Assembly (NCBI GenBank): GCA_963706795.1
Contig: OY970170.1
Location: forward strand, 1,170,001-1,202,000
Direction of reading: 5' to 3'
DNA from: Candidatus Saccharimonadota bacterium
GTDB lineage: Bacteria > Patescibacteriota > Gracilibacteria > BD1-5 > UBA2023
Length of the DNA stretch: 32,000 nucleotides
Below, piece after piece: positions 1 to 32,000 of the stretch (its first letter is position 1; each line of letters starts with the position of its first letter). A model generated the notes under the pieces. The model saw only the letters and a list, made by a program, of their open reading frames with translations, ran no database searches and was not told the DNA's origin. The translations under genes were made by a program, and so were the position numbers.

Positions 1-90
1 GTACCTTACAACAGAAATAAAAGATTCTGTGTTTTTGAACAAGTGTTTCATATTGGATACAGTGAGTATTCAAGAATCTTCGATTTTGAT

Positions 91-3000
91 CTATTCAACT
101 TCGTCAATGAATTTTTTGCGTACGTAGCCAGTTCCTTTTTGTGATCGGATTTCAACCCATTCTGAACCATTAAGACGGTCGAGGATAACGATGAGCTCGC
201 CATGTTTGAGTGGGCTGAGTGATCGTACGATCGGAGAATCTCCATCTGGCTTTGAACGAATATTGAGGTATCGAGCTGCATTGACGCGTGCCCATGTAAC
301 CTCGTAGTTGAGTTCGTGACCTTGTGCAAAGAGGTATGGATCAGTGCGGGCAATATCCGAATCCTGAAGCGTTCGGAGATAGTCGAGATAGACCCAACCA
401 TCGACCCCGTCAAATGTTACATGCCCCCAAACTCCTTGTTCCCCAATGAGTTCAACACGGCTATTGCGTGGAAGTGTCGCGAGGAGATCGCCATCCATGC
501 TTGGTGTCAAGCGAACATTGACCGAGTTTGCAGCGCTGATAAATCGTGCACCACCTTCAAATGTATAGTCTACTGGATTTGTACCATTGGTAGCAGTTGG
601 AGTATCGACTGCGTCACCATTCTTTACAACATATCCAAGTCCTGGAGCATCAACTGCATGACCAATTGGAGTCTTTGGAACTGTAGGCTTTTTTATCGGA
701 GTGGTTGGCTTAACTGTTGGCTTTGTCGGTCTAACAATTGGTTTTGTTGTACCCTTCACTGGAGTAGTTGGTGGGTATGGGGTTTTAATTGTTGGAGTTC
801 CCATGTTACCGATTGCTCCTGTTCCGGTAGTGGTAGTACCGGTACCAGTAGTAGTTGTCCCTGTTCCCGTATTTACTGTAGGAGTAGAAGGTGTTGAAGG
901 AAATCCAATGAAGATGCTTCCTCCTCCACTTCCACCACCTCCGCTTGATCCAAATGATCCGCCGCCCCCTCCACCAGATGAACCTCCATTACTTCCGCCA
1001 TTTGTGCTTGCTACTGCGAAGAGTGCGGTACCAACTGGAGTATCTGTAATGTTTCCTGCTGCATCAACTGAGTGTACAAATACGTAATAGGTATTTGTTG
1101 GATCTACACCAACAATCGCACCTGAATGACTTGTACCAACTGTTGATCCGCTCCAAATTGTTGTCGCAACAACATTTGAGCCCGTTCCTACATAAAATGT
1201 TGAAGTCGTCGTTTCGTTCGTTGTAAATGTGTAATAACCCGTTGTCACTCCTGCATTAGTAACTCCTGAGAAGCTCTGAGCACTAATTGCGGGTGCGAGT
1301 GCGTCCTGAGTAATTACCACGTTCGTTCCAGTTGATACATTACCTGCGAGGTCAGTTGCCCGAACTACAAAGGTTGTTCCTGTATTTGTAACGAGTGGGA
1401 GAGTGAGCGTATATGCTCCAGTACCACTTGCGATTGTAGAGACCATTCCTGAAGATGTCGCTGTGACTGTTGCTCCTGTCTCAGTCGTACCTGTGAGAAC
1501 GTATGTAAGTGCATTTGTAATTGCTCCCGTTGCCGAGACCGTAAAGCTTGGTGCAACCGAATCTTGAATTACCGCAATCGATCCAGTAAGGGTCGCCGAA
1601 GTGTCAGTGGCCGTTACGAGGAAATTATTTGTCACATTTGCTGTGAGTGGAAGCGTAACACTATATGCCCCCGTTCCAGATACGGTAGTCGAGGCTGATG
1701 CTGTACCGCTGACTGCAATATTTGCATTTGCCTTTGAAGTTCCTGAAATCGTAAATGTATTTGCGCTCGTCGTAATTGGTCCGACCTGCGTAATAGTGAG
1801 TGTGAGTGGAATTGGATCCTGAGTAATTACTACAGATCCCGTTCCTACATTGCCTGCAAGATCAGTTGCAGTGACCAGAAGCGTATTTGCTGCACCAATC
1901 GAGAGTGGTACAACGAGGCTAAATGCTCCTGAACCATCTGCAACTCCACCGACTACTGCGCCAGAACCTCCAGAGATTACAATGCTCGCAAAGGCTTCTG
2001 TTGTACCGCTAAGTGTTGCGGCGAGTGCACTTGTTGTATGAGCTGCAGTAGCAATTACAACCGCAGGATTGATATCGTCATGCGTAATGCTTACAGAACC
2101 GGTAGCAACATGCATTGCCTGATCGGTTGATGTCAGACTAATCGTATTGAGGCTGTTTGGAAGAAGTGGAACTACGAAGCTATAATTCCCGCCTGCAGCA
2201 CTTCCTGTAAGAGTGAGTCCACCATTTCGAGTCAGTACGAGCGATGATCCAACCTTAGTAGATCCCGTAAGCGTGATGCTATTTGACGAAGTCGCTACTG
2301 GCTGAGGACTGATGAGAAGTGTATTAGCAACCGAGTCTTCGATGACCGTAATGGCGCTCGATGCTGTATTGGTTGCTGCGTCAGTTGCTGTTACTGTGAG
2401 GATATTTGTCGTATCCTGTAGAAGCGTTGCATTCGTACTAAATGCACCTGTAGATGATGCTGTGGCTGTACCTACCGTAGATCCAGACTGGTTGGTGATT
2501 ACGATATTTGCATTCGCTTCGGTGATTCCGTCGATCTGGAATGTATTTGCATCGACGATTGCTCCGCTTGCTGTAGAGAGGATGACCGTCGGTACGATGC
2601 TATCCTGGAGTACATTCATACTTCCAGTTCCTGCATTGCCTGCATTGTCTGTCGCAGTTACGAGGAGGGTATTGAGACTATTTGCTGTGAGCGATACCAC
2701 TCCTGAGAATGTACCATCCGATGCGGCAGTAACCAAGAGAGTTGCTGCTCCACCCGTGATGCTGATATTCGCATTTGCTTCTGTTGTACCTGTAAATGCT
2801 ACTGTTGCCTGATTTGTGACCGTAGTCGCAGGAGTAACAGAAACAACGGGATTAATATTGTCCTGAGTTACCGTGAGTGTTCGAGTAGAAGTATTTCCTG
2901 CTGCATCGGTTGCAGTCACAATGATTGTATTGTGAGCATTGAGCACGAGGGCAACATTGCCAGAGAATGCTCCATTACCGAGAGCAACAACATTGTCTGT

Positions 3001-6000
3001 TGATCCTGTATTACTGATGCTTACTGAGAGACCTGCTTCGGTTGTACCTGCAATATCAAAGCTTCCAGAATTTGTTGTCTGTCCTGAGGCAGTTGAGATC
3101 GTGAGAAGGGGAGGGGTGTTATCGATCGTAATTCCTGTTGCATGAATACCTGAGATATTACTTGAGGCATCAATTGCAATTGCGTCGTAATGCCCGTCTT
3201 GAACTCCTGCTGGAATTGTGAATGTATATGGAACATCCGCGAGTGCATTTGCCTTACCAAGGAATGCCTGACCACTCAGTAGGAGCGCTGTAAGATCACC
3301 TGTTGTTGCTACTGTTGAACCACTTTGTACAAAATAGATGCTTCCATTTTCGTCGATCGAAAGACTCGTTGTACTCGTAGAACCCGTTCGAAGGATTTCG
3401 TTAGTTGCTACAACATTTGTGATTGCCGGAGCTGTGAGATCGAGTGCAGCAGCTGAGTATGTAAATGGCGTACCTGGGATGCTTGCTGTAAGGATGAGAT
3501 TGGCACCAGATGCCGTTGCTGTGACTCCACTTGCTGTAATATTTCCTGCAAGTGCTGTGACTACTGAATTGTCAGTATCAAGGGCATTACTGAGATAGTC
3601 ATAATTTGTCGCATTGACCGTAACACGGAATGTCCATTTTTTAATCGTATTTGAAGGCGTCACCGTAACAATCTGTGAAACCGGTGGTACATTGATCGCT
3701 GTGATCGTTGCAGTCTGCGTATTGATTACTGAGAGTGTGCTTACTGAGAATGCCGTTCCTGCAACATTTGCCGTAAGAATAAGCGTCGATCCTGACATGC
3801 TTGTTGTTACGGGTCCGAGTCCATCGATGGCTGTTCGGAGATTTGTGAGGGTTGTTGCGCTGTCTGTTGCAAATGATGCCTGAGCTGTGAGGCTACCATT
3901 TACTGTAAGGCTTACGGCATCACCAGGGAGGAATGTTGGTACATTCACGCTCATAACCTGTGCGACTGGTGCAACATTGTTAACTGTGGTAGTTGGCGCT
4001 ACAGTATTGCTTACTGAGAGATTTCCGAGAGTAAATGGAATTCCTGCGACTTCTGCAGTAACCGTTACTACGAGCCCGCTTGCTGTCGCGCTCACTCCTG
4101 GTTGTGCGTCGATTGCTGCTGCAAAACCACTCATTGTGAGGGCTTCTGATCCTGAGAAACTCGTTGTAACACTTCCACTGCCTACTGGGAGCGTAAGTGT
4201 GTCACCCGCAACGAGATTTCGAGGCATAGTAACGTCCATAATCTGAGCCTGAGCTGGCACATTTGGCACGATATTCGTGTTTGGAACTGCGAGAGCAATA
4301 CCAAGAGCGCTGAGCGTGAATGGAATTCCTGCAACTTCTGCAGTAACCGTAATAGTAGATGCTCCGCCATTACTTACTGCGCTCACTCCTGGAAGTGCAT
4401 CGATTGCTGCTGCAAGATTTGCGAGAGTTGTTGCTGTGTCGGTTGCAAAACCTGCAGTTACCGTCTGTGCATTTACATCAACAGAAAGCGTCTCACCAAC
4501 CACGAGGGTTCGTGGAATTGTAAATTGATCAACCTGTGCTCCGCTTGCGACATTTGGTACGAGATTTACTGGGCTGATGGATTCGCCATCGAGCTTGAGG
4601 CTTCCAGTGTATCCAACACCTGCCGTCTTTGCTGTGAGTCGTAGAGTCTTTGTAGCTCCGCTATATGAAGCACTCGCAAATGTCCCGTTATCAATGAGTC
4701 CACCAAGAAGCGTCATCGTTGTAGGAGCATCCGTTGTAAATGCCTGATTAACACTTGCGCCTGAAAGTGTCGCAGTAACCGTCTGTCCAGAATGTACATC
4801 ATACAAAAGTGTATAATCATCCACCTGAGCTACCGGAGCTACATTTGCCTGAAGTGTTGTAGGAGTGCTTGAGTTATCTATTGCAATTGTTCCGATCACG
4901 AGACTTGCACCTGTTGCAGTCGATGCAACAATTACTGTATTTGATCCACTTGCTGTTGCGCTTACGCCTGGCTGAAGGGCAATATTCGATGCAACATTTA
5001 AAATCGTAGTTGCGTTGTCTGTTGCAAACGGTGTATTGACCGTTGTACCATTCACGTCTACCGCCACAGCATCACCTGCTACAAAATCCGTAGGGAAGGT
5101 GATCGACTGACGTGCTACCGCACCTGCCGAACTCGAGACTGACTGTGTTGGAGTTACTGTATTGGTAATGACGAGATTTCCAGTTGTAAATGCCGTACCT
5201 GCATCAGCTGCAGTAATCGTAATTACTGATCCGCTCGCAGTTGCATCGAGCTGAGGGAGGCTATCAATATTGCTCGCAAGATTTGCAATTGTCGTTGTCG
5301 AATCCGCAAGATATGTCTGTGTAAAGAGAGTTCCATCAATCGTTACTCCAACACTGTCGCCATTCACGAGCGTACGAGGAAGTGTATATGTATTTGATTG
5401 AGTAACTGCGACTACTGGCGTTGATTGAGTCGATGTAATATTTCCTGGTGTTGCTCCATTTACAAAATTGATCTGCGTTGTTCCTACCTGAGCAGTCTGA
5501 CGCGTAAAGATCGCATGTGTACCGGTTCCACCTGGTGTAATAACACCATTTACTGGATCGCTAATACCATTGAGTCCTCGTAGAAGTGCTGCAATAGTAC
5601 CGATATCAGTAGATGCGATATTGATCACTGCTGCATTATTACTACAGTCATAGTCTGGAAGTGTCACTGACGAAAATGTCACATTACATGAGCCAATCGT
5701 GAGAGTTTCACCTTCGAGTGGAGCGGATACCACATTCACATCGAGTGAAGCCTTCGTTTCAGGAGTATTTGTAGTCACTGAAGTTGATGCTACGCCAGTG
5801 CTGGTTGTTACAAAATTACCAGTAGTGAACGAGTTACCTGCCGTTGCTGCTGTTACTGTGAGTGTACGAGTTCCTGTATTCATCGTTGCATCTACTGCGC
5901 CAAGAGCATCTGTAGCCGTTCCAAAGCTATTTAAAGATGTTGCGTCATCTCCAGTAAATGCACCCGTAAGACTCTGTCCTGCAATCGTCCATGTCGTCTG

Positions 6001-7695
6001 ATCACCCGAAATAATCGTATTTGGAATGATATAACTCGAGATCTGTTTTACAGGATTTGCTGGATTTTGGAGAACCGTAGGTGAGACCTGATTGATCACA
6101 TTGAGGCTCGAAATGCTAAACGAAACTCCAGGTGTCGTTGCTGTTACGGTAATAGTACGAATCCCCAGAGAAACACTCGCATCTACGTTTGCAAGTCCGT
6201 CAATCGCTGCCGTCATAGCAGTAAGCGTCGCGTTTGAGCTTGTGATATATGACTGATTTACGGCTATTCCATTGATCACGATACTCGCATTGTCGCCAGC
6301 AACGAGATTACGTGCAAAAGTGATGGTTTCGCTTTGAGATTTTGCTACAACATTGGCAACGACAGAAGTTGTTGCTACTTGTGTTTGTATAGCGAATGCA
6401 CCAAGAGTAAACGGAGTACCTGCTGCTTCTGCTACCACAGTAACAGTTTTAAGTCCTGGATTGCTCGTCGCTGTAACCCCAGGAAGTGCGTCAATAGCAC
6501 TTGCAAGAGCTGCAAGCGTCGCTGCGCTTGATCCAGAATAGCTGAGATTTACAGGTGTTCCGTTCACGCTTCCTGAGAGCGTATCACCTGCAACGAAGTC
6601 ACGAGCAAAGCTCATAACATCCTGCTGAGCCACTGCAATCACATTTGGTGCCACATGTACCACTGCTACACTATTACCCGTAACCGCAAGTGTTCCAATC
6701 GCAAAGGGTGTGCCTGGAATTGCAGACGTAATAGTAATCGCTCCTCCACTACGAGAAGCATCAACTGCAGCAAGTGAATCAATCTGATTTACAAAGGCAT
6801 CGAGTGTTGCATTTGAGCTGCCTGTATAGCTCTGCACAATCGGCGTACCCGCAACTGTGAGAGCCATTTGCTCACCGGCATCAATCGTTCGTGGAAGCGT
6901 GATTGTATTGACCTGCGCAACTGGCACAACATTTGGCTGTACGACGCTTGGATTTACGCCACTCGACTGAATAACGAGATTTGAGAGGCTGAATGGAACT
7001 CCTGCCGTCTTTGCAATAAAGCTGATTTTATTTGTCGCACCCGAATAGCTCGCATTTACAATCGTCCCCGATGTAATTTGTGAAGCAAGAGCCGTAAGAG
7101 TTGTTGTCTTGTCAGTATTAAAGTTTTGAGTCACACCCGTACCTGCAACAGTGAGTCCTACAACATCACCAGCGATAAGGTTTGCGTTGATCTGATACTC
7201 AGCCTGCTGTGCAACCGCAACAACGTTATTAACGAGCGTATTAAAGTTATTTGGTGCATCTTGTACTACGAGTGTCGGGGTAGCAAAAGGCGTACCTGGA
7301 TTAGCACTCGTAATCGTGTAGGTTCGAGTAGGAGTATCTACAGTCGAGTTTACTTCGGTAAGTGCATCAATTTTTACATTGAGAAGCCCGAGTGTTACCG
7401 TGCTCGAAGTATCGAATGCCTGTGAGACAGTCGTACCGCTGAGAGTAAATACCAAATTATCTCATGGAACAAGGTCATGAGGTACACTCACTTGCACAAT
7501 TTCTGCTCCTGCTGGAACATTAGACTGTGTAAGCGTGGCTGTAAGTGCTGGATTCGCTGCATATGCGAGTCCAGGCATCACAATCTGTGCGATGAGGAGA
7601 ACAATGGAAAGGCCTGCTACTTTCCGACGAAGGTACTGCGACATAAAAGACAGATTAAAAATGATTACTCTTTGAGTGATAGTTTGGCGTGACAT
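91..7695 (-). CDS. giant secreted/cell-surface repeat protein, 2534 aa with TGA 7462-7464 read as Gly; putative adhesin or envelope protein
   Basis: ORF-track pieces 91..7455 and 7462..7695 share a frame and are separated only by TGA. AGGAG lies 4 nt upstream of the ATG at 7695. The N-terminus has a basic region, a hydrophobic core and AYA|A (signal/anchor). Downstream come ~14 repeats of ~97 aa, 7 Ig-like repeats, an FN3-like module, Gly-rich and Thr/Pro-rich linkers, and 2 SH3b-like domains. Stop is TAG at 91-93. Confidence 0.9.
94..560 (-). other. two C-terminal SH3b-like (bacterial SH3, cell-wall binding type) domains of the giant protein
   Basis: First: ARFISAANSVNVRLTPSMDGDLLATLPRNSRVELIGEQGVWGHVTFDGVDGWVYLDYL. 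Second: ARYLNIRSKPDGDSPIVRSLSPLKHGELIVILDRLNGSEWVEIRSQKGTGYVRKKFI. Both fit the (V/L)N(V/I)R..P......(I/L)..L..G..(V/L).......(G/W)W..(V/I).....GW(V/I)...(Y/F)(L/I) pattern. Confidence 0.7.
690..1005 (-). repeat. low-complexity linkers: a Gly/Ser-rich tract followed by a Thr/Gly and Pro/Thr/Lys-rich tract
   Basis: The protein reads GGSNGGSSGGGGGGSFGSSGGGGSGGGS, then TGTGTTTTGTGTTTTGTG, then PTTPVKGTTKPIVRPTKPTVKPTTPIKKPTVPKTP. The corresponding DNA is visibly low-complexity. Confidence 0.9.
1300..3125 (-). repeat. 7 tandem Ig-like (bacterial Ig / Big-type) coding repeats of ~87 aa
   Basis: Each unit has the form DxxxPxxxxxxxxxxTNxxxxxxxGTTEAxAxxxxxxxxxxxxxxxxxGxFSxxxxLxxxxxNxxxVTATDxAGNxxTGSxxxxQD. 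Unit ends are TVTQD, NVLQD, TVIED, SITHD, VITQD, AVIQD and VITQD. Confidence 0.75.
3440..7455 (-). repeat. about 14 tandem coding repeats of ~285-291 bp (~95-100 aa) inside the giant gene, interrupted by one unique insert
   Basis: Recurring pattern: (V/A)AQ(V/I)xx(V/I)T(L/F/M)PRxLVAGDxxxVxVNGxxVxxxFxxDxATTLxxLAxAIDALPGVSAxxSGxxxTITVTAExAGxPFTLxxL. At the DNA level, the 32-mer aatggaattcctgcRacttctgcagtaaccgt occurs at 4034-4065 and 4319-4350 (31/32 identical, 285 bp apart). Confidence 0.85.
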
Positions 7696-7944
7696 GGGAC
7701 TCCTGTATTGATATCCGCTGTTGTGTTTTTATCTTGCAATAAACTTATCTCCGCTGCAAGTATTGTCAAATGACTAAAATCTTGTTTCGTATAAATAATT
7801 TATACGGAATTCATCCCTTGGGCAAAGGGATTTGATATCTTTTTTTGGCAAAACTTCCTCAAAAGCAGAAATATTCAAAAAACAACTTTTAAAAATCGTC
7901 AATTTGCACAAATTCGACGAAATATTTCTTGAAATCGCAAATAA

Positions 7945-7963
7945 ATATGTACTATGTACATAT
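7945..7963. promoter_or_regulatory. candidate LexA operator (SOS box) upstream of umuD-umuC
   Basis: Perfect 19-bp palindrome ATATGTAC-TAT-GTACATAT, ending 15 nt before the umuD ATG. The same ATATGTAC / GTACATAT arms flank the lexA upstream region at 27621-27651. Confidence 0.55.
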
Positions 7964-7978
7964 AAATAATCAAAACAT

Positions 7979-8329
7979 ATGTACAATCATCCACGTTTTG
8001 TCACAGAACGCCAAGAATGAGAGGGGAGCCTCTCTGATTATCTCGTCGAACACCCCGCAACTGCGATGTTCCATACCATGAAGGGCTCGAGTATGTGCGA
8101 TGTTGGCATATTTGAAGGCGACACTGTCGTAATTGAGAAGGGGAGAGTGCCAAAAGCAGGGGATGTTGTGCTTGCTATTGTGGATGATAGTTATGTGATT
8201 CGCATTTTTGATTTTCATGGGAACAGGCCGATGCTCAGATCTTGAAATCCCGAATATGCTTCGATTATCCCAAGCGAATCCCTCGAGATCCGCTGAGTAG
8301 CCGTCTCTCTGATGCGAAAATATCACTAA
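7979..8329 (+). CDS. umuD: UmuD-like S24 peptidase-fold protein, 116 aa, 3 in-frame TGA
   Basis: Hand translation: ...LSDYLVEHPATAMFHTMKGSSMCDVGIFEGDTVVIEKGRVPKAGDVVLAIVDDSYVIRIFDFHGNRPMLRSGNPEYASIIPSESLEIRGVAVSLMRKYH. This aligns by eye with the E. coli UmuD core (GDSM Ser motif present). TGAs are at 8018, 8243 and 8294. Stop is TAA at 8327-8329. The ORF-track entry on the opposite strand (7970..8341) is an antisense shadow. Confidence 0.8.
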
Positions 8330-8339: not shown

Positions 8340-9530
8340 ATGATACTTCGAACTTCGACAAAACTCTATGCACATGTCGATTGTAATTGTTTCTTTGTAT
8401 CATGCGAAATACTCCGCGATCCTTCGCTCAGGAATAAATGCGTTGTGGTCTGAGGCGACATTATCATCGCGGCATCTTACGAAGCACGTAAATATGGCAT
8501 CCGAGTCGGTACTCCAAAATGGGAAGCAGAACAAATGCTCGCAGGCAAGCTTATAATTCTACCGCCAGATCTCGGATATTATCGCAGAATTTCCGACGAG
8601 TTTCTCTGATTTTTAGGTGAAAGAAGTCTCTCAGTTGAGCCATTTTCTATTGATGAAGCCTTTTTGGATATTACATGACTTCCAGATCGTTTTACTGAAG
8701 GAGATGTCACCAAATTTACCACTCAGTTACGAGAAGAGGTCAAAAATCGCATCGGGATACCAGTATCAATCTGAGTCGCCAATACTCGCATTAAAGCAAA
8801 AATTTTCTCAGATATTCATAAACCAAATGGTCAGTTTGTGGGTCTCGATGCGAGCGACGAAGCTGAAGTTTTTACAGAGCTTCCGGTACGAGACATTCCA
8901 TTTGTGGGACGTAATACTGAGATCAAGCTTGGTAAGAGTGTTCGAACAATACTAGACTTCAAACAGTTTGGCTTTTTTGAACTTGATCGACTTATCGGTA
9001 AGAATGCAACAACTCTTTGGCTCGAGCTTCATGGTGTTGATGTCTGGCATATGGATCATGGCCGAGGCGGGCGACAGAAGAGTATTTTGAGGTCTCGATC
9101 CTTCAATCACTTCATGACAGATAACAAGCATATTCTCTGGCGATATTTCCTCGCTAATTTTGAAAATGCCTACCGTGAACTCATGGAGCTCGAATGCGAA
9201 ATTGGAGAGGTGAGTGTGCTTTTGCGCTCAAGAGAGCTCGTGAGATCCCGAGCTTCACGAATTTTTGATAGCAGCACCGCAGACAAGCACCAAATCCTCG
9301 AAACCTGCAAAGAACTCATGACAGAAGTCTTTACACCTGGAATATTCTATAGAACCACGGGGATTCTGTTTTCGGGCCTAACGATTGCTAATCCGCGCCA
9401 ACTCTCAGTATTCGATGTCGATAACACTCGATATGAACGCACAATCCGACTCGAGCAAACTCTTGCACAGGTCAATCAAAGATATGGCAAATGATCTGTG
9501 AAGCTTTGAGGAACACTTATTAGTGGATAG
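8340..9530 (+). CDS. umuC: Y-family (translesion) DNA polymerase, UmuC/DinB-like, 396 aa, 6 in-frame TGA
   Basis: Motifs YAHVDCNCFFVSCE, SIDEAFLDIT[TGA=G] and PVSI[TGA=G]VANTRIKAKIFSDIHKPNG. It is in frame with ORF-track 8838..9494. I checked every codon from 8340 to 8838 and found no TAA/TAG. It starts 11 nt after the umuD stop. The first true stop is TAG at 9528-9530. Confidence 0.88.
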
Positions 9531-9757: not shown

Positions 9758-10804
9758 ATGAAATATATCAGCGCTCTCGAGGAATTCATCACATATTTGC
9801 GACTACACCGAAATGCGAGTCCAAAGACTATCGAGCAATACGAATTACATATATGGAAGTTTTTAGAGTTCGTAGATCCAAAAACCACAGGTCATCCTGA
9901 TCTCGATCTTCCCCATCATGCTATTTTTGTAGAAACTTCGGAAGATCCTGAAAAACGAGCTAAAAAGATGCAGACAAAGATGTTTTTACGAGGATTATGT
10001 CGTCTCGAGATCGAAAACGTGAATTTAGAGGATTTAAATGAATTTCGCCTATTTTTGGCAGATAAATGACTCGCTGTGAAGTCTGCAAATGCCTATATGA
10101 TCACGTTTCGGACGTTTTTTAAGTTTTTGAAGAAAAAATGAATCCAATGTATCGATCCAACCACCATTGATCTCATTAAAGAAAAGGATCGCCAAGTGAC
10201 ATTTTTAACAACTGAGGAAGTCATGAAGCTTTTTGCGAGTGTCTGAAATGATCGAATCCAGGACAAACGTGATCTCGCAATCCTCGAATGTATCTATTCA
10301 ACTGGACTGCGTATCTCTGAACTCACAAATCTCAACCGTAACAGTATCAATCTCGATACCATGGAATTCATCGTCCGCGGTAAGGGTTCCAAAGTCCGAA
10401 TTGTCTACCTGACAGAACGCGCAAAATGAGCAATTGTAGACTATCTCGAAGCGCGAAATGATCATTTTAACCCACTCTTTATACGCCATAATTACGACGC
10501 AGAGAGTATTAATTCGGCATCTTTAGATGATGAACATGTGCGTTTAACGCGTCAGTTTATCACGGATATGGTCGGCAAGCGCGCTATGAAGGCAGGGATT
10601 CTCAAGGATGTTTCGGCTCATACGCTCAGGCACTCGTTTGCGACGACACTTTTGGAGCATGGTGCAGATATACGATCGATTCAAGAACTTCTTGGTCATT
10701 CGTCAATTACGACGACTCAGGTGTATACACATGTCACGAATCCACGCCTCAAAGAAATCCATCGAAACTTCCATTCGCCTTTACAAAAAGATGGCGACCT
10801 ATAG
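9758..10804 (+). CDS. xerC: tyrosine recombinase/integrase, XerC/XerD family, 348 aa, 4 in-frame TGA
   Basis: ORF-track pieces 9758..10069 and 10538..10804 are in the same frame. The gap translates without TAA/TAG. Motifs: [54 protein letters not shown] (catalytic R..K..HxxR..H..Y set). TGAs are at 10067, 10139, 10244 and 10427. Confidence 0.88.
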
Positions 10805-10853
10805 AGTATTCCTGCTTCACCCGTGATTAAACTTCAGAAAGAGGAAAGCAAAA

Positions 10854-10958
10854 ATGACTATCGAACCTGTAGCACCGATCTTTTCACCGCAAGGCGATGA
10901 AGTATGCATTACAGTAGACGACGGCCGTAAGCGCGGCGATCGTGTAAAATTGGGCTAG
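10854..10958 (+). CDS. possible micro-protein, 34 aa (MTIEPVAPIFSPQGDEVCITVDDGRKRGDRVKLG)
   Basis: GAGGA lies 8 nt upstream of the ATG. The ORF sits between the recombinase stop and a strong terminator at 10988. I recognise no similarity. Confidence 0.3.
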   Translation: MTIEPVAPIFSPQGDEVCITVDDGRKRGDRVKLG

Positions 10959-10987
10959 CTTCCCACTAGCACTGATTCAAATCAACC

Positions 10988-23732: not shown

Positions 23733-23814
23733 TTCTGTCTGAAATTAGAACGTAAATGGTTCAAAAATGGCTTTGGAAAGCGGTTATCGTGGGAGTGTGC
23801 ATTTATTCCCGTAA

Positions 23815-23863
23815 ACACTACATTTTGTGTTGAGACATATTCGCGAAACACTAGATATTGTCA
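23815..23863. promoter_or_regulatory. two NrdR-box-like 16-bp palindromes upstream of nrdA
   Basis: Box 1 is ACACTACATTTTGTGT (23815-23830). Box 2 is ACACTAGATATTGTCA (23848-23863). Their centres are 33 bp apart. Box 2 overlaps a minus-strand TTGACA (23859-23864). Confidence 0.55.
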
Positions 23864-23955
23864 AACAAAATTATAAAAAATTTGATCAATTTTTCGGTTT
23901 TTGATCTACGGAGAGCATCACAAAGAGCTTTCAATTTTGAATAATTGAAATAGAC

Positions 23956-24303
23956 ATGCTTCTTCATATACTTCCAGTAAATTTATCCATACCTATGAAA
24001 GTCGCCATTTTTGGACTGGGAGCAATGATTATCGCCTGTCTTTTTGGAATATCTTTTAGTGCGGTACACGCCGCAGAAGAAATCGATTCCGTTCAGGTTC
24101 CAAAATCTACCTACACAGAACAAATCCAAAAAGCGAGCAATATTTATCACGAAAAAAAGACCGCATTCCAGTTATGGTATACGGCCAACAATAAACGCGT
24201 GACTCTGATTCCTGATCTTATGAATGTCCGTATTCTGGACTTTCTTTTGCTCTGTTTGACTATTGCAACCCTCGCATGGGTCTGCATTCGATGGCTTATA
24301 TAG
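23956..24303 (+). CDS. small membrane protein, 115 aa (or 102 aa from ATG 23995)
   Basis: An N-terminal hydrophobic segment (KVAIFGLGAMIIACLFGISFSAVHA) and a C-terminal TM (ILDFLLLCLTIATLAWVCI). Stop is TAG. Confidence 0.55.
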   Translation: MLLHILPVNLSIPMKVAIFGLGAMIIACLFGISFSAVHAAEEIDSVQVPKSTYTEQIQKASNIYHEKKTAFQLWYTANNKRVTLIPDLMNVRILDFLLLCLTIATLAWVCIRWLI

Positions 24304-24304
24304 T

Positions 24305-24808
24305 CTATTGAAGTGTCGGACTTGATACTTCCTCGGCATCAAAAAGATCAAGCTGACCTAGCACTCCCATTGCTCTATTACGGAAAATGGTTGGTAGCAT
24401 ATATTCACCATTCCCAATAAGAAGGCGGAGCGAGTATAGCGCAATAATGAGCATATTTGAGAATATCTGTCTATTTGATTCAGTATTGAGATATTCAGGA
24501 GTACTGATACAGCGAATTACTTCTTCGAGTGAGGTGATGAGCGCCTGATATTCGGAAACATCTATGGGTTCTGCAAAATTCTGTGGCTCGCCAGCAAAAT
24601 CAGTATAGGTCTCAAGGAGAAGCGCTAGATTTTTGCGATCCTGGCCATCTAGTGACGCCATATGAGTTCCTGCTGAAGCAAATTGAATAGATTCGAGTAT
24701 GCTCATGGCCATAGCGGTCTTTGCAGCGGTTTCATCTTCCTTGAGGAGATCGCACAAAAATCCGCCCTCTGGCTGAGTACTAAATCCTTGGGAAAGACTT
24801 GTTTGCAT
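24305..24808 (-). CDS. hypothetical protein, 167 aa
   Basis: Intact ORF ending in TAG. Its ATG follows directly after the T-run of the rluD terminator. I recognise no motifs. Confidence 0.55.
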   Translation of the reverse strand: MQTSLSQGFSTQPEGGFLCDLLKEDETAAKTAMAMSILESIQFASAGTHMASLDGQDRKNLALLLETYTDFAGEPQNFAEPIDVSEYQALITSLEEVIRCISTPEYLNTESNRQIFSNMLIIALYSLRLLIGNGEYMLPTIFRNRAMGVLGQLDLFDAEEVSSPTLQ

Positions 24809-24850
24809 AAAAAAATGATGAGATAGCGTCAGCCTACCTCATCATTTTTT
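24809..24850 (-). terminator. hairpin with flanking A/T runs downstream of rluD
   Basis: AAAAAATGATGAG-N15-CTCATCATTTTTT. The 8-bp stem spans 24815-24822 and 24838-24845. Confidence 0.6.
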
Positions 24851-24868
24851 AAAATTCAAATACATGAC

Positions 24869-25837
24869 CTATTTTGTGTCTTTTAAAAATTCAAAAGGCA
24901 ACGCAAGTAAATCCTGTTTAATCGGAGCCTTAAATTTATAATCGATGCCAAAGAGACAAAATTCGAGTCGGTAGGCATGGAGCCACTGTCTTTTGAGTGC
25001 ATATTTATCCATGATTTCCTTGTTGATTTTTTCGCGACCATAGACGTTATCGCCAATGATCGGAAAGCCAATGGAGGCCAAATGTACACGAATTTGATGG
25101 GTTCGACCCGTGAGAAGTTCGACCTCAATGAGCGAGAGTCCATTCATTCTTTCGAGTACGCGAAATTTAGTCTTTGCGAGCTTTGGATTAATTGGATTAT
25201 CAACGGTCATTTTTTTGCGATCTTGGGGATCACGACCAATGTAGGACTCAATATATCCAAGGTCATCCCGCGGGCCACCAATGACGACCGCAAGATAAAA
25301 CTTATCAATCGTACGCTTCTCGATTTTGCGTTGGAGAGCGCGCATTGCGACATCATTTTTCGCAATCATAATGAGGCCACTCGTATCCTTGTCGAGACGA
25401 TGCACTAATCCAGGTCGCTCAGTTCCATTGATGACCGAGAGCTCACCAAAATGATGAAGCAAACCATTCACTAAGGTTCCCGTTTTGCCAGCCTCTCCAC
25501 CAGGAGGATGCACATTGACACCAGCATCCTTGTTTATGATCGCAAATTGCTCGTTTTCAAAGACAATATCAAGATCCATCTCTTCTGCTTCAAACCTCAT
25601 TTTATCTATTCGCCACTCGACTTTAATGACATTACCACGATAGATTTTTGAATTTTTTTTGAGTTGTGCCCCATTGACCCATACATCTCAGCGATCAATA
25701 AGACGCTGTATATATGATCGTGAAAAATCGGAAAAAAGGACCGACAGAAATGTGTCGATCCTTTTACTCTCTCGGTCTTTTACCCAGACTGAGAATTCTA
25801 CTATCGATTTAATCGTTGAGTTCACGAGTGTATGCAA
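24869..25837 (-). CDS. rluD: 23S rRNA pseudouridine synthase, RluD-like (S4 domain + RluA-family catalytic domain), ~322 aa, 1 in-frame TGA
   Basis: ORF-track 24869..25600 carries HRLDKDTSGL and the catalytic core. In frame upstream, across TGA 25688-25690, lies an S4-like segment RIDTFLSVLFSDFSRSYIQRLIDR-G-DVWVNGAQ. There is no in-frame ATG. The best start is TTG 25837 (AAGGAAGGTGA 5 nt upstream) or GTG 25825. Either overlaps the ndk 3' end. Confidence 0.8.
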
Positions 25838-26246
25838 AGATTTCACCTTCCTTAAAGAATCGTGCAAGCTCCGCAGCTGCTGATTCTTCGCTGTCTGAAG
25901 AGTGGATAATATTGTTGTCGATATTCTTTGCGAAGTCACCACGGATAGTACCTGGAAGTGCATCAGCTGGATTCGTTGCTCCAGCAAGAGTGCGAACTAC
26001 ACGGATTGCTTCATGTCCTTCAACGGCGATCGCAACGATCGGACCAGAAGTCATAAACGCAAGAACGAACTTGTAGAATCCCTTTGTAACGTGCTCAGCA
26101 TAGTGACTATCACAAAGTGCCTGATCCATCTGAAGCATCTTGAGACCAACGATCTTGAGACCCTTCTGTTCGAGACGAGCTGTAATAGTACCGATAATAG
26201 ACTTCTGAACGGCATCTGGCTTGAGGAGAATGAGCGTACGCTGCAT
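25809..26246 (-). CDS. ndk: nucleoside diphosphate kinase, 145 aa
   Basis: MQRTLILLKPDAV...GATNP...GTIRGDF...NIIHSSDS (active-site His). Confidence 0.93.
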   Translation of the reverse strand: MQRTLILLKPDAVQKSIIGTITARLEQKGLKIVGLKMLQMDQALCDSHYAEHVTKGFYKFVLAFMTSGPIVAIAVEGHEAIRVVRTLAGATNPADALPGTIRGDFAKNIDNNIIHSSDSEESAAAELARFFKEGEIFAYTRELND

Positions 26247-26475
26247 AATACAAATGTGTTATAAATTTGGGCCATCATAAAAAACTTGTCTAAAAAGGCA
26301 AGTTAACTTGCTATATTGACGACTTTAATCAATCGCATATTGCATCTTTCATTGATTTATATGACTCCTTGTAATTTTTATGAAATAAATAATATACAGG
26401 AACTCATAGCAATGAGTTGTCAAAAATATGACACCCATACAAATACCTATCCAAATACGACAAAAGGAGCTAAAA

Positions 26476-26856
26476 ATGAAAGTGCAATCATTGAAAACGA
26501 TCTACAAAGCTACCCCTGGAGATGATGCATACATTCCAAAGACATCAGACAATCAACACTTCTATGTTGATTTCAGCATCCTTCCGCCGGGCGACTACAT
26601 ACTCACAAGTGAATCAGAAGATGGTAATGTGGTGACATTTTCTCAGAATGATGCGCCTACAGTTCCGGTTTGGAGCACAATGGGGTGTCAGCTCGCCTAT
26701 CTGCTTCAAGAAGGTTTGCTCACAATCACCCAAGGCGGCATCGAGGATTTCGAGGAAAATCCGGAAGTAATTGCATACTTCCACGAAGAAGCAGAAGCTA
26801 GCGAAGCCCCTACTCTCGAGGGGATGCGTCTAAAATTCCAGTTTGGGGCGCAATAA
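26476..26856 (+). CDS. hypothetical protein, 126 aa
   Basis: AAGGAG lies 6 nt upstream of ATG 26476 (the ORF-track entry starts earlier, at 26428). Stop is TAA, followed by a terminator at 26877. Confidence 0.6.
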   Translation: MKVQSLKTIYKATPGDDAYIPKTSDNQHFYVDFSILPPGDYILTSESEDGNVVTFSQNDAPTVPVWSTMGCQLAYLLQEGLLTITQGGIEDFEENPEVIAYFHEEAEASEAPTLEGMRLKFQFGAQ

Positions 26857-26876
26857 CGCTACCACAACAATATTTG

Positions 26877-26902
26877 AGAAGTCTACGGACTTCTCTTTTT
26901 TA
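26877..26902 (+). terminator. rho-independent terminator
   Basis: GAGAAGTC-tacg-GACTTCTC followed by TTTTTT. Confidence 0.8.
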
Positions 26903-26917
26903 TGTAAAAATCACATA

Positions 26918-26945
26918 AAAAGCGAGATGATCATCTCGCTTTTTA
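26918..26945 (-). terminator. symmetric terminator downstream of lexA
   Basis: AAAAAGCGAGATGATCATCTCGCTTTTT is a perfect palindrome with A/T runs on both sides. Confidence 0.75.
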
Positions 26946-26970
26946 TTATGAAGACTCACCTTGAAAGTGA

Positions 26971-27615
26971 TTAATCAAAATTAAATACATCCACTACCTT
27001 TCCATTAATCTCAATCGAATCCGAATCTGAAAGCACAATCGGTGAGTGCTGTGAATCCTTTGAGTCTGGAAGGAGATAAATACTCTCCCCTTCTTGTTTT
27101 ACTTTTTTGACTGTCGCTGCGCCATTAACGATACAGAGATACGCCCCGAATGGATTATCAACCGCTTTTACACTCGAGTCTACGAGTACATAGGCTCCAT
27201 CCTCAAGCATTTTTCCGCGGATACTAAATGCGTTCATTGATGTACCTTGGAGCTTCACGCAGAAATACTTTTTTTCGTCACCATTGAGTGCACTCTTTGA
27301 GATCAGCAGCTTACCTGCGTCAGCTTCTTCTGCATAGAGAAGTGGTCGACCAGCATTAGCAACCCCAAGAATAGGAATTGGAATTGCAATCTGTGAAGCG
27401 ACAATACGATCTCCGAGGCGGATCGAACGATAGCCTCTTCCACGAGAGATATAGCCCTTGCGTTCGAGGTAGTCCAAAAATTGTACAACCGAGTGCTTGC
27501 TGCGTGCACCGAGAACTTCTTGAATTTCTTCGAGCGTTGGGGATTCACCGTGATTTTCGATGTAGCCCTTCACAATATCAAAGACCTTTTGTTGTTTAGG
27601 AGTGAGCATAGACAT
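26971..27615 (-). CDS. lexA: LexA repressor, 214 aa, no TGA
   Basis: N-terminal wHTH (LTPKQQKVFDIVKGYIENHGESPTLEEIQEVLGARSKHSVVQFLDYLERKGYI). Cleavage-site-like VANAG|RPLL. S24 catalytic Ser in QGTSM and Lys in ATVKKV. Confidence 0.9.
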   Translation of the reverse strand: MSMLTPKQQKVFDIVKGYIENHGESPTLEEIQEVLGARSKHSVVQFLDYLERKGYISRGRGYRSIRLGDRIVASQIAIPIPILGVANAGRPLLYAEEADAGKLLISKSALNGDEKKYFCVKLQGTSMNAFSIRGKMLEDGAYVLVDSSVKAVDNPFGAYLCIVNGAATVKKVKQEGESIYLLPDSKDSQHSPIVLSDSDSIEINGKVVDVFNFD

Positions 27616-27620
27616 AGGTT

Positions 27621-27651
27621 ATATGTACTGAGTATATATACCTGTACATAT
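27621..27651. promoter_or_regulatory. candidate LexA auto-operator: 31-bp near-palindrome directly upstream of lexA
   Basis: ATATGTAC-TGA-GTATATATAC-CT-GTACATAT. The outer arms are identical to those of the umuD palindrome, and the centre GTATATATAC is itself palindromic. It overlaps a possible minus-strand promoter, TTGCAC-N16-TATACT. Confidence 0.5.
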
Positions 27652-27681
27652 AGTGCAAATTTTTATGCACACTTCGCTCTG

Positions 27682-28662
27682 CTACTTACCAAGATAGCTT
27701 CTGCGATTTGCATTATGCTCCTCATTGGTTCGCGCATAGTGGATATCCCCCCGATCATCATGGAGATAAAAAAGATAATCCGAAGACTCAGGATTGAGTG
27801 CTGCGAGCCACGTATCTTTTGAAGGATTTGAAATCGGCGTTGGCGGCAGTCCTATCTTTTTGCGTGTATTGTAGGGACTCTGACTATCGAGATGATCAAC
27901 GATATATGACGGTGTGCAATCACGAGTCGACATAACCTCCACATAACAGAGCGTTGCATCAGCACCGAGCGCCATTCCGATACGAATACGTTTGAGAAGT
28001 ATCCCCGCAACTGTCGGTTTGTTATCAGGATTACGTTCTTCTTTTTCGAGAATCGATGCGAGAATGAGTGTATCTTTAAAGTCTTTTTTGCGATTTGCTG
28101 GGATCTTGTCATAAATACGTGACTGAAACGTATTTAAAAGCGTTGTAAGAACATCCTGCAGCTTCCCATCTGGTCGTATACGGTAGGTATCAGGATAGAG
28201 CACTCATTCAAGAGTATCGAGTCCAGTCAAGAAAGCATACTTTTGCTTAAGTGTCTTCATATTTGCAGCATCCATATCTCTGAGCGCACCAGACTCCGAA
28301 AGTCAGAGTCCTGTAAGATACGCATCTACATCAGCAATATTCCAGCCTGGTAAAATCGTAATTGTGAGATCTTTGGTAGAAGGCTTCGCTAGAGCGGTTT
28401 GCAGTGCTGAAGCAAAGGTTACAGACTCAGGTATTGAATACGTACCACTTTGAAGCTTAAAACTTGCCTGATTGAGTCGCATATAGGCTTTAAATCGCCA
28501 ATTTGCGATCGGCATGTCGAGTTTTTCGTAGAGACTCGCTGCAGTATCACCTTGAGTTACGGTAATCCGCTTTGGGCCAACCATAACATTAGCTACCGAC
28601 GAAATCAGATAATATACACTGATCACCAAAACGACTACAATAATTCCAAGAAGTTTTTTCAT
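27682..28662 (-). CDS. mltG: endolytic murein transglycosylase MltG/YceG, 326 aa, 2 in-frame TGA
   Basis: ORF-track 28303..28662 (N-terminal TM anchor) and 27682..28203 are in the same frame. They join as ...AYLTGL-G-LSESGALRDMDAANMKTLKQKYAFLTGLDTLE-G-VLYPDTYRI.... Also present: ILASILEKEE and YNTRKKIGLPPTPISNP. Confidence 0.88.
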
Positions 28663-28671
28663 GAAGATATT

Positions 28672-29130
28672 TTAAGGATTCGAGCCAGTAGAAGTGACTC
28701 CTGAGCTATTTGCACCTGACCGAATGTTGCCACTTGCTGATCCTGAAGCAGTAACACCGCTAAAGCTTGCGAGATCACTGACATTTGATTTAAATTCACT
28801 GATCGCTTCCGTAGTTTTTTGGGCAGAATCATATACTTTTTTTGCCTGCTCTACCTTGTTTTCAAGCGTTGATTTGGTTGTGTCAACGGTTGTTCGAGCC
28901 TGATCGATGATATTTTTGGCATTATCAAGGATCCCACCAGTAGCATTTTTGGATTCAATGAGTTTTTCGGAAATTGTATCGGCTCCCGCCTTCCATGCAC
29001 GCATTTGGATATTGGCATTTTGGATACCAAACAGATCCCCAAGTTCATCCGCCTGAGAAGGCAAAAGAAAGACCGCCAGGCAATAGAGCACAGCGATCAC
29101 AACCATTGCAGAGAGAATTCTCACGATCAT
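28672..29130 (-). CDS. membrane-anchored hypothetical protein, 152 aa
   Basis: N-terminal TM (ILSAMVVIAVLYCLAVFLL), a helical middle, and a Ser/Gly-rich tail. Stop is TAA. Confidence 0.6.
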   Translation of the reverse strand: MIVRILSAMVVIAVLYCLAVFLLPSQADELGDLFGIQNANIQMRAWKAGADTISEKLIESKNATGGILDNAKNIIDQARTTVDTTKSTLENKVEQAKKVYDSAQKTTEAISEFKSNVSDLASFSGVTASGSASGNIRSGANSSGVTSTGSNP

Positions 29131-29131
29131 A

Positions 29132-29506
29132 TTACGAAAGAAGATCTGCTATAGAATCCGAATGTTTGAGCTTTTCACGAAGCGCAAGAATGTCATCATC
29201 CTTAATCGCAGGAGTCTGTGAAATAATCGGAGCTTCCATCTGAAAAATGGTTTCTCCACTGAGATTTTGGAGTTTTTGGATGTCAGAAGCGTTTCACATG
29301 ACATTAATTTCAGCCTTGATGACGCCAGAAGCCTTGCAATGAGGACAAAACACTTCCATGTTTACTAATTGACCCGAAGTACCAAGAATCTGGACATCAC
29401 GATCGGTGATCTTCCCTCCGCAACTCTTGCACGCAAAGTGGGCAATCGTGGCTTCGATGATACTTTTCATGATGAGGTAATTCATATGAGGAGAGTTAGT
29501 GATCAA
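29132..29506 (-). CDS. zinc-ribbon-containing hypothetical protein, up to 124 aa, 1 in-frame TGA
   Basis: CKSCGG...N24...CPHCKASG (CxxC...CxxC). ORF-track 29294..29506 reads through TGA 29294-29296 to TAA 29132-29134. The start is uncertain: TTG 29506, ATG 29485 or ATG 29470. Confidence 0.55.
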
Positions 29507-29621
29507 GATGCATTGTACGATGACTCTGTCATTTTCTCAAGGATTCTGTAAGAGGAATGCCTTGACACTTTTGCTACATTCATCTCAGATCTCGTATCTT
29601 TGCTTGTAGAAGAGGCGGAAT

Positions 29622-31091
29622 TTAGATACTCTGGATAAGTCTTTTTACTCGAGTCTTTGCAGTCTCGAGCCCAAGAATACTTGCGAGTTCGAATGCTCCA
29701 GGCGAGAATTCTTCGCCAGAGAGTGCGATACGAAGTGGCCAGAGAACCTGCCCATTTTTTAGTCCTGCCTCAGCAATATGTGCCAAGTAGCCAGTCTTAA
29801 AGGTTTCAAAATCAGAAATATCACTCTGTTTTTCGAGATACGCGAGTGCAATTTCGAGACCATTTTTTGCGGTAGCAAGGTCTTCGATCTTCATCTTTGG
29901 ATTGACGAGAATATCTGATCTTACAGCGCTATCGCCATAGAAAAAAGTCGTGAGAGATTTGTACTCATCGAATCTCTTAAGGCGAGTTTTGAGCTCGTGG
30001 ATGATCGCGAGATTGAGTTTTTCTCCTGCAGGAATAAAAGTAGCAGCATAGAACTCAGGATCGAACTCAGCGAGATGAGCACTGAGTCGAGCATAGAGAT
30101 CAGCGTCATCGAGTTTGCTGATATATTGCGCATTCATCCAGTCAAGCTTTACAGGATCGAGGATCGGACCAGATTTATTCATCCCACTGACATCGAACGC
30201 AGCAATGAGCTCATCCATGCTAAAAATTTCTTGTGTAGTTTTTGGGTTCCAACCAAGAAAGGCGATAAAATTGAGAAGTGCCTCGGGCAAATACCCCTTT
30301 GTAAGATAGCTCTCAACTGCCGTATCCCCTGTACGCTTGGAGAGTTTTTTACCGTCAGCGCCCATAATATTTGGCATGTGCGCAAATTCTGGGAGAGTCA
30401 TACCAAGGCCTCGAGCTACGAGTACCTGCTTAGGGATAGAAGAAATCCATTCTTCTCCGCGGAAAGCATGAGTTACTCACATGAGATAGTCATCGATAAC
30501 GACTGCGCCATGATATGAAGGAAAGCCATCGGACTTAAGAAGAACTTGATCATCTACAACGCTCGAACTCCATTCCATACGCCCCCTGAGAAGATCATGA
30601 AAAACAATAGTCTCCGCCTTTGGAACTTTGAGACGGATTGTATACGATTCGCCGCTTGCAACGCGAGCCTTAGAATCCTCAAGAAGGAGATCCCGACAAC
30701 ATCCATCGTATTTTGTAGGGAGCTTCAAAGCTTCCTGCTCTTCACGAAGGGTTGTAAGACGCTCGCTCGAGCAAAAACAATAATACGCACTTCCATTTTC
30801 TACGAGGGTATGGAGATGCTTTTGATAGATTGGAAGTCGTTGAGACTGAACATACGGACCGTTTCATCCGTCCATATTTGGACCTTCGTCAGGCGCGAGA
30901 CCAAATTTAGCGAGCACTGAGAGGAGATTTTCGGTTGCTCATTCTACAAGTCGCCCCTGATCAGTGTCTTCGACACGAAGCAAGAATGTACCGTTATTCT
31001 TGCGAGCATAGAGATAACAATACAGTGCAGTTCGGAGTCCACCGATATGAACATACCCTGTAGGTGAGGGTGCGAATCGAGTTTTTACCAT
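29622..31091 (-). CDS. gltX: glutamyl-tRNA synthetase, 489 aa, 3 in-frame TGA
   Basis: [23 protein letters not shown]..., KLSKR. The pieces 29622..30401 and 30477..30728 plus the N-terminus join in one frame. TGAs are at 30477 ([16 protein letters not shown]), 30864 (NMDG-G-NGPYVQS) and 30939 (LVE-G-ATE). Confidence 0.93.
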
Positions 31092-31092
31092 A

Positions 31093-31127
31093 GAAAAAAG
31101 AGAGTTCTCAGTATAGCGAGAACTCAG
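31093..31127 (-). terminator. rho-independent terminator between the PKD-protein gene and gltX
   Basis: On the minus strand: GAGTTCTC-gctatact-GAGAACTC followed by TCTTTTTTCT, then the gltX ATG. Confidence 0.7.
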
Positions 31128-31139
31128 GAAACTCCAAGT

Positions 31140-32000
31140 TTAGAATCGAATCTCAAATACTCGTCCGCGAGAATAGATTGCAGATTTATCAGGCGACAAA
31201 ATAGTTGGCACAACTACGTCACAGCTTCGAGCTTCTGCAAGATACTCTGTACTATATGCACACGGACAGCTTGTACAGCTTGCCGCTCCAAAAATCGCAC
31301 CTGTACTCTTCGCACGATCAAAATAACATTGACCACCAACTCAAGTCTGAGTGAGTGCAAAATCATTCCCTTGATAGACATCAACAAAAGGACATCATCC
31401 ATTGGTTTTTGGTCCGGCAACGAGCGGACAGCGATCATCCGAATTAAGTACTCCATCGCCATCCGTATCGATGGACTCTGTAAAGAGAAGCGTGAGATCT
31501 GCAATAGCAGTAGACCCCTGAGAATCACGCACTGTCAGAGAAACTGGAGTTACACCTGGTCGCAAAAATGTATGTACGGGCGAAATCTCAGTCGAAAAGC
31601 TTCCATCCGAAAAATCCCATCGATAGGTATATGGTCCAACTCAACCACTCACCACACCAGTGAATTTTATATCTTGCGGAACCAAACCTGAGAGTTTATT
31701 GGCAGTTGCGGTAACTGAGAGCCCGCGCAGCTGATTTTTTGGAATAGCTGCATCATCACGAATCTCAACTGTAGCAATTGCAGTCGCTGTACGTCCAGTG
31801 TCTTTATCGCGAATAGTGAGGCGCACGAGCCAAGTTCCAGAGCCATCAAGCGCAAATGACTTGAGACAGGCGCCAGATGCAGTCATTTTTTTACCATCTT
31901 GGATTCTCACAAATTCCCAAGAGTATTCGAGATTGCCAGTCGCTTCAGTAATCGCCGAAAATGTGTAATTGGTTTCTTTTTTATCAGGGAAGGTCGTCAC
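31140..32000 (-). CDS. secreted PKD-domain / thrombospondin-type-3-repeat protein, C-terminal 286 aa (5' end lies outside the window), 3 in-frame TGA
   Basis: In frame with ORF-track 31641..32000. All codons from 31140 to 31643 were checked. PKD-like units (YSWEF..DG, PYTYRWDFSDGS) are followed by [27 protein letters not shown] (a TSP3 Ca-binding motif) and a Cys-rich tail. TGAs are at 31641, 31395 and 31341. Stop is TAA at 31140-31142. Confidence 0.75.

Follow-up and report, generated by a model that had tools for sequence, protein, structure and literature searches.

The window analysed here, that is, the whole 32,000-nucleotide stretch of contig OY970170.1 presented above (GC content 43.7%), is assigned with a probability of about 0.97 to the chromosome of a member of the Gracilibacteria (BD1-5/GN02-type, candidate phyla radiation (CPR)/Patescibacteria) that uses NCBI translation table 25. 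In this code, UGA encodes glycine, UAA and UAG are the sole stop codons, UGG is the sole tryptophan codon, and the rest of the code is standard. Judged from the sequence, glycine is supported as the best-fitting meaning of UGA by three independent tests, namely the codons that relatives carry at the same positions, the residues of homologs with solved structures, and the retention of TGG for tryptophan. The recoding itself is already known for the clade (PMC8629427, PMC4032931). This agrees with the sequence-only reading, an earlier interpretation of the same DNA made without database searches, which had described the reassignment as known for Gracilibacteria/SR1.

Glycine at the in-frame TGA codons

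When only TAA and TAG are taken as stops, 25 coding sequences (CDS) cover more than 91% of the window (Table 1). Fifteen of them end in TAA, ten in TAG and none in TGA, and their C-termini fall where orthologs in related genomes end. Inside these CDS there is no in-frame TAA or TAG. In-frame TGA codons number 52 and are spread over 18 of the 25 CDS, which corresponds to 0.5% of all codons and 7.6% of glycine codons; a further 526 TGA triplets lie off-frame inside CDS. The sequence-only reading had counted 49 in-frame TGA codons in 17 CDS. This count is reproduced exactly on its own gene set, from which the umuD-like S24 peptidase gene (7979–8329, plus strand), with three TGA codons, had been left out. 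Its observation that no CDS ends in TGA is confirmed, and all eight positions that it quoted are indeed in-frame TGA codons (8676 and 8772 on the plus strand; 17770, 18643, 30864, 30477, 28204 and 25688 on the minus strand). The same applies to the lengths it obtained by reading through TGA: 883 amino acids (aa) for valS, 489 for gltX, 326 for mltG and 348 for the xerC-like gene, with the Y-family polymerase, DHFR and YgiD/LigB also full-length. Full-length Pfam matches are obtained only when TGA is read through.

The effect of the stop codons on gene length was assessed by a greedy call of open reading frames (ORFs) under four stop sets. Table 11 stops give a coding density of 76% and a median ORF of 168 aa, compared with 92% and 260 aa when TGA is a sense codon. 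The controls, in which TAG or TAA is treated as sense, reach 81% with 189 aa and 82% with 174 aa, respectively. Re-calling genes in this way had been proposed earlier as a check, and TGA as sense gives both the longest median ORF and the highest density. The gain in coding density is modest because the genome uses TGA sparingly.

The amino acid at TGA was determined by codon comparison with relatives. A scan of the GTDB species-representative genomes with the valyl-tRNA synthetase (ValRS) protein yielded 79 related loci, totalling 1.14 Mb. The relatives were translated with TGA masked, and only GGN was counted as glycine; consequently, no code is assumed. Opposite the TGA codons of the window (about 220 cells), 72 GGN codons, 18 TGA codons and a single TGG are seen in the relatives. 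In the reverse direction, the 1,241 TGA codons of the relatives face GGN in the window 784 times, alanine codons 107 times and tryptophan (TGG) not once. Glycine or TGA is the commonest entry at 31 of the 46 alignable TGA columns (67%). In control columns, the frequency of this plurality is 76% for GGN, 0.9% for the other codons and 0% for TGG. With a substitution matrix that was derived from these alignments, the maximum-likelihood meaning of TGA is glycine, alanine being 25 log units worse and tryptophan 693. The consensus residue per TGA column, which had also been suggested as a check, is mainly glycine and not tryptophan. In the comparison with the closest relative, locus L001 (ValRS 83% identical), 25 of the 38 aligned window TGA codons face GGN and four face TGA, and the TGA codons of L001 lie mostly opposite GGN in the window. 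Read under code 25, these swaps between TGA and GGN are synonymous exchanges.

Homologs with solved structures (PDB), all from standard-code organisms, provide a second line of evidence. In DHFR, sites 16, 72 and 99 are glycine in all five PDB alignments shown and glycine or TGA in the relatives. Sites 52, 68, 106 and 208 of YgiD are all glycine in E. coli YgiD (2pw6) and in L001, and site 153 of MltG is glycine in 4iiw and 8yq7. DinB has glycine at sites 38 and 145 in the PDB homologs, and H or D at site 113. The glutamyl-tRNA synthetase (GluRS) is more variable: Thermus has G and Borrelia K at site 205, the residue at site 51 is G or E, and at site 76 it is D or P. No tryptophan stands opposite a TGA site in the PDB alignments of DinB, DHFR, GluRS, YgiD, MltG and RluD. 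The sequence-only reading had described the glycines at its eight sites as family-invariant, which is overstated for three of them. At the LDIT-x position of DinB (8676), solved homologs have H or D and two relatives have G. At the DG-x-NGPY position of GluRS (30864), solved homologs show D or P and relatives E or D, and at the R-x-DVWVNG position of RluD (25688), E. coli RluD has Q, with TGA twice and G once among relatives. The conclusion that UGA encodes glycine is unaffected by these three sites.

Since CGA and CGG are predicted to encode tryptophan in related groups (PMC8629427), the meaning of every codon was derived from the columns of the same relatives. The standard meaning is recovered for 60 of the 62 observed codons. 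The exceptions are TGA, which comes out as glycine, and CTG, for which a marginal Leu/Met call with a margin of 2 log units is regarded as noise. TGG comes out as tryptophan, with 68 TGG columns facing TGG 1,188 times. This bears out the earlier statement that conserved tryptophans are still TGG and that the code is not table 4, as does the WWGHQIP motif of valS, which uses TGG. An extended code of the SR1 type, with UGA as glycine plus CGA and/or CGG as tryptophan, deserves consideration because CGA/CGG=Trp has been predicted for Absconditabacteria and CGG=Trp for some Gracilibacteria (Shulgina & Eddy 2021, PMC8629427). However, CGA is common in the window rather than rare, and its 106 columns, as well as the 14 columns of CGG, face mostly AGA, CGT, CGC and AAA. 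Both codons come out as arginine, with margins of 1,403 and 160 log units, which makes the extended code very improbable. As all codons but TGA have their standard meaning, the code is plain table 25.

Lineage, decoding and competing explanations

In the GTDB species set, each of the 79 ValRS relatives is a metagenome-assembled genome (MAG) that bears the label Gracilibacteria, 'Peribacteria' or Patescibacteria; GN02-873 and HOT-871 are among them, and the best is the 83% identical L001. In-frame TGA lies opposite glycine in all 79, and gene order is common to the window, L001, L003, L004 and L079. ValRS similarity to these MAG loci upholds the earlier placement in an uncultured CPR lineage, and the sequence comparison supports a position of the window within the Gracilibacteria/BD1-5 lineage. 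For the GTDB class JAEDAM01, to which the orders BD1-5 and Absconditabacterales belong, table 25 is the accepted code (gTranslate preprint 10.64898/2026.05.24.727570). For a BD1-5 bacterium, UGA=Gly has been proven by proteomics, with 97 peptides unique to the glycine translation and 3 to the tryptophan translation (PMC4032931). The use of table 25 in Gracilibacteria (BD1-5/GN02) is attributed to Rinke et al. 2013, as cited in PMC8629427, and a closed genome of Gracilibacteria using this code is available (PMC6851277).

Compared with Gracilibacteria that use table 25, the window shows no difference in kind. It shares TGA at glycine positions, UAA and UAG as sole stops and UGG as tryptophan, and its nearest ValRS relatives carry the Gracilibacteria label. 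The small genome fits, the exact proteins of the window being found on a 1.27-Mb contig, and the GC content of 44% falls in the upper part of the reported range of 0.21–0.53 (PMC8629427). Absconditabacteria (SR1), a sister order in the same class, likewise read UGA as glycine (Campbell et al. 2013, as cited in PMC8629427 and the gTranslate preprint). They differ in that CGA and CGG, which are arginine codons in the window, are predicted to encode tryptophan there (PMC8629427), and the closest ValRS relatives of the window are labelled Gracilibacteria instead.

A chromosomal origin could be questioned, as nrdAB, folA, an integrase-family gene, umuDC and lexA are all known from phages, and code-25 phages of Gracilibacteria have been described (PMC10746230). 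If so, the window would belong not to the chromosome but to a phage or another mobile element whose host uses code 25. This origin is given as slight a chance as the extended code, because the window also carries two aminoacyl-tRNA synthetases, mltG, rluD and ndk, and the Pfam scan of the window reveals no phage structural genes. Moreover, the gene order is common to MAG contigs of up to 1.28 Mb, and the exact proteins of the window lie on a contig of 1,267,896 bp.

The assignment of UGA to tryptophan (table 4) has an even smaller, nearly negligible probability. Table 4 is used by Mycoplasmatales, several insect endosymbionts (Hodgkinia, Zinderia, Nasuia) and some Eggerthellaceae, and is linked in the literature to the loss of release factor 2 (RF2) and to a tRNA carrying the anticodon UCA. 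In both codes UGA is lost as a stop; consequently, ORF lengths and coding density are explained equally well by either, and the amino acid is what separates them, glycine in the window and tryptophan in table 4. The single TGG among about 220 cells opposite window TGA codons, at position 24839 in L001, is what table 4 can claim in its favor. Against it stand the complete lack of window TGG opposite the relatives' 1,241 TGA codons, the deficit of 693 log units, the lack of tryptophan at TGA sites in the PDB alignments, and the use of TGG in conserved tryptophan columns (68 columns, 1,188 cells).

The reading in which TGA is still a stop, the interruptions being due to pseudogenes, assembly errors, selenocysteine or programmed read-through, agrees with public gene calls that split gltX, mltG and rluD at TGA on identical contigs, but it is dismissed at the same near-negligible level, as 52 TGA codons and no TAA or TAG lie inside the 25 CDS, conservation carries on across and past every TGA, TGA and GGN interchange among relatives, only 13 of the relatives' 1,241 TGA codons face cysteine codons in the window, an Rfam scan of the window finds no SECIS element and no family at the gathering score, and the window is matched at 100% identity by two independent assemblies.

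Some observations nevertheless weigh against the assignment of UGA to glycine. At 13 of the 46 alignable TGA columns, the residue in relatives is not glycine; the same holds for 20% of GGN columns, and such columns are expected at variable sites. The window TGA at 24839, which faces TGG in L001, is a second point, and going by sequence alone, UGA may be decoded ambiguously at a low level. Finally, the 32-kb window contains no tRNA gene. Neither do two Logan contigs of 7.3 kb and 10.2 kb (run ERR12037365) that are 100% identical to the window: L080, which corresponds to window positions 19629–26944, and L081, which corresponds to 26917–32000 and extends 5 kb past the right end. A release factor gene is likewise absent from the 32-kb window and the 5 kb beyond it on L081, out of a genome of 1.27 Mb.

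A candidate decoder is present in a relative. In locus L006 (ValRS 68% identical), a tRNA of 79 nt whose anticodon is UCA is encoded at 7374–7452. Its acceptor stem is 7 bp long and includes the pairs G1:C72, C2:G71 and G3:C70; the discriminator base is U73, and the variable loop is short. Under the standard code, this tRNA is called 'SeC' by ARAGORN; however, it lacks the long variable arm and the extended acceptor stem of tRNA-Sec, and it agrees with the tRNA-Gly(UCA) criteria of Shulgina & Eddy (PMC8629427). By analogy with the biology of the clade, UGA in the organism of the window would be read by a dedicated tRNA-Gly whose anticodon is UCA. This tRNA would be charged by glycyl-tRNA synthetase through the identity set G1:C72, C2:G71, G3:C70 and U73. 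According to the literature on the clade, RF2 would have been lost, so that nothing would terminate at UGA, and release factor 1 would serve UAA and UAG.

Gene content and uneven use of TGA

The features of the window are collected in Table 1. Identities of CDS come from Pfam unless stated otherwise; gltX was identified through its PDB homologs.

Table 1. Coding sequences of the 32-kb window, with in-frame TGA codons and the behaviour of the corresponding columns in relatives.
Feature	Length (aa)	Coordinates	Strand	In-frame TGA	Identification and remarks
Giant surface protein	2534	91–7695	-	1 (7462)	232 GGN; Pfam: 6 Big_6 Ig domains, 2 SH3_3
umuD-like S24 peptidase	116	7979–8329	+	3 (8018, 8243, 8294)	PF00717, E=9e-16; orthologs in L001 and L003 each G at 2/3 TGA sites
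Y-family DNA polymerase (dinB/umuC type)	396	8340–9530	+	6 (8451, 8607, 8676, 8772, 9492, 9507)	IMS, IMS_C; homolog in PDB alignment reaches residue 394
XerC-like tyrosine recombinase	348	9758–10804	+	4 (10067, 10139, 10244, 10427)	Phage_integrase, SAM-like domain; 2 columns with Gly/TGA plurality, 2 variable
Conserved hypothetical	263	11284–12075	-	8	42% of its Gly codons (8/19); orthologs in 6 loci; Gly/TGA plurality in 6/8 columns
Conserved hypothetical membrane protein	599	12151–13950	-	1 (12400)	Orthologs in 5 loci; column A4/G1
valS	883	14005–16656	-	1 (14866)	tRNA-synt_1, Anticodon_1, Val_tRNA-synt_C; variable column; 79 orthologs
Hypothetical	282	16727–17575	-	5	L001 ortholog G at 3/4 aligned sites
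folA (DHFR)	168	17560–18066	-	4 (18019, 17851, 17770, 17572)	DHFR_1
ygiD / LigB-family dioxygenase	256	18076–18846	-	4 (18691, 18643, 18529, 18223)	LigB
Hypothetical	161	18847–19332	-	2	L001 ortholog: TGA at one site, G at the other
nrdB		19365–20420	-	0	Ribonuc_red_sm
Hypothetical between nrdB and nrdA		20430–21077	-	1 (20913)	
nrdA		21114–23732	-	0	Ribonuc_red_lgC, ATP-cone; 0/43 Gly codons
Hypothetical	186	24305–24865	-	2 (24842, 24839)	Tandem TGA-TGA close to N-terminus; N-terminal region conserved with L001
rluD-type pseudouridine synthase		24869–25987	-	1 (25688)	PseudoU_synth_2, S4; TGA in S4 domain
ndk		25809–26246	-	0	NDK
Hypothetical		26428–26856	+	0	
lexA		26971–27615	-	0	LexA_DNA_bind, Peptidase_S24
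mltG/YceG	326	27682–28662	-	2 (28303, 28204)	YceG; relatives G3/E1 and G4
Cys-rich small protein		29132–29506	-	1 (29294)	Variable column; orthologs in L003, L004, L079
gltX	489	29622–31091	-	3 (30939, 30864, 30477)	PDB GluRS matches, E=1e-104
PKD-domain surface protein		31140–32000	-	3 (31641, 31395, 31341)	PKD; cut by window end; Gly plurality in all three columns

The use of TGA differs markedly between these genes. From gene to gene, it makes up between 0 and 50% of glycine codons (chi-square p=1.5e-17). TGA is missing from nrdA, nrdB, ndk and lexA and accounts for 1 of 233 glycine codons in the giant surface protein and 1 of 48 in valS, compared with 29–50% in a set of poorly conserved genes (xerC, folA and three that are hypothetical). 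The TGA share drops with rising protein identity to the L001 ortholog (Spearman −0.77, p=8e-4). Similarly, in 51 of 55 related loci the TGA share of valS is lower than that of the rest of the locus, where figures are inflated by spurious ORFs. The window as a whole, with TGA at 7.6% of glycine codons, lies below the related loci, for which the median over other ORFs is roughly 46%, a value also inflated by spurious ORFs. Across loci, the TGA share falls steeply as GC rises (rho −0.90). The nearest relatives (L001–L004, L079) have a GC content of 41–57%, compared with a median of 35% over the 79 code-25 loci, and carry 0–3 TGA codons in valS.

A limited literature search found no paper addressing uneven use of UGA between genes. 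One tentative explanation, held at somewhat less than even odds, is that in this higher-GC branch of code-25 organisms UGA is a disfavored glycine codon that is purged by selection, most of all from conserved and probably highly expressed genes. The uneven use is compatible with selection against UGA, the 32-kb sample being too small to settle the matter. If this explanation were true, the decoding of UGA by tRNA-Gly(UCA) would still be slow or error-prone, possibly due to competition with UGG/Trp decoding or to residual termination, and the reassignment would still bear a fitness cost long after it arose.

Several features of individual genes may be added. The giant protein encoded at 91–7695 is a secreted or surface protein with a hydrophobic N-terminal segment, roughly fifteen repeats of about 90 aa, six Big_6 Ig-like domains, a Gly/Thr/Pro-rich linker and two C-terminal SH3_3 domains; the GC content of its gene is 46.7%. 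At the other end of the window, the PKD-domain protein continues on the L081 extension as an SLH-domain protein, with a MiaB-like radical-SAM enzyme and LepA encoded after it. In the hypothetical gene at 24305–24865, the tandem TGA-TGA (24839–24844, minus strand) is followed by GGN and would read Gly-Gly-Gly; the L001 ortholog has T-W there and a TGA of its own two codons upstream of these positions. The longest rluD frame overlaps ndk by 179 nt (25809–25987). The likeness of its N-terminal part to L001 is probably ndk conservation seen in another frame; consequently, the true start of rluD probably lies downstream of 25809, past the overlap. An ORF at 10827–11360 on the minus strand, with four TGA codons, was deemed spurious and left out of the counts. 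It has no Pfam match and no ortholog, and it overlaps two small plus-strand ORFs with a terminator-like hairpin between them.

The umuD-like gene and the Y-family polymerase form a umuDC-type pair, the former lying 10 bp upstream of the latter. The promoter region of the umuD-like gene (7940–7990) and that of lexA (27616–27660) have TATGTAC/GTACATA inverted-repeat motifs in common. The former includes the perfect palindrome TATGTACATA at 7953–7962, and ATATGTAC-N15-GTACATAT is found upstream of lexA. The motif TATGTACA occurs twice in the whole window, both times upstream of umuD. These inverted repeats are a candidate SOS box (LexA operator) for the lineage.

On the minus strand between 11284 and 32000, 11 of 19 pairs of same-strand neighbors share one reading frame (binomial p=0.024), a weak excess that is too weak to interpret. 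The gaps of same-frame pairs include 0, 3, 9, 9, 9, 36 and 48 nt; the ATG of ygiD, for example, directly follows the stop of the hypothetical gene at 18847–19332. Because these same-frame neighbors are separate genes with their own orthologs, they give no sign of read-through of TAA or TAG.

Consequences for annotation

The choice of translation table decides how the genes of this organism are described. Annotation with table 11 truncates or splits 18 of the 25 genes, as illustrated by the public gene calls on L080 and L081, in which TGA is taken as a stop: gltX is split into 50 and 259 aa, mltG into 119 and 173 aa, and rluD is cut to 243 aa. Annotation with table 4 puts tryptophan at 52 glycine positions. 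Several close relatives are deposited merely as 'Patescibacteria group bacterium' or 'bacterium', and records under such generic labels can be given table 11 by default at NCBI (gTranslate preprint); consequently, a check of the code is worthwhile for those relatives. The value of the assignment is practical (annotation and taxonomic flagging) rather than conceptual, and the known account of the code reassignment is unchanged. For the organism itself, table 25 corrects the proteome and flags its bearer as a Gracilibacteria-type CPR bacterium.

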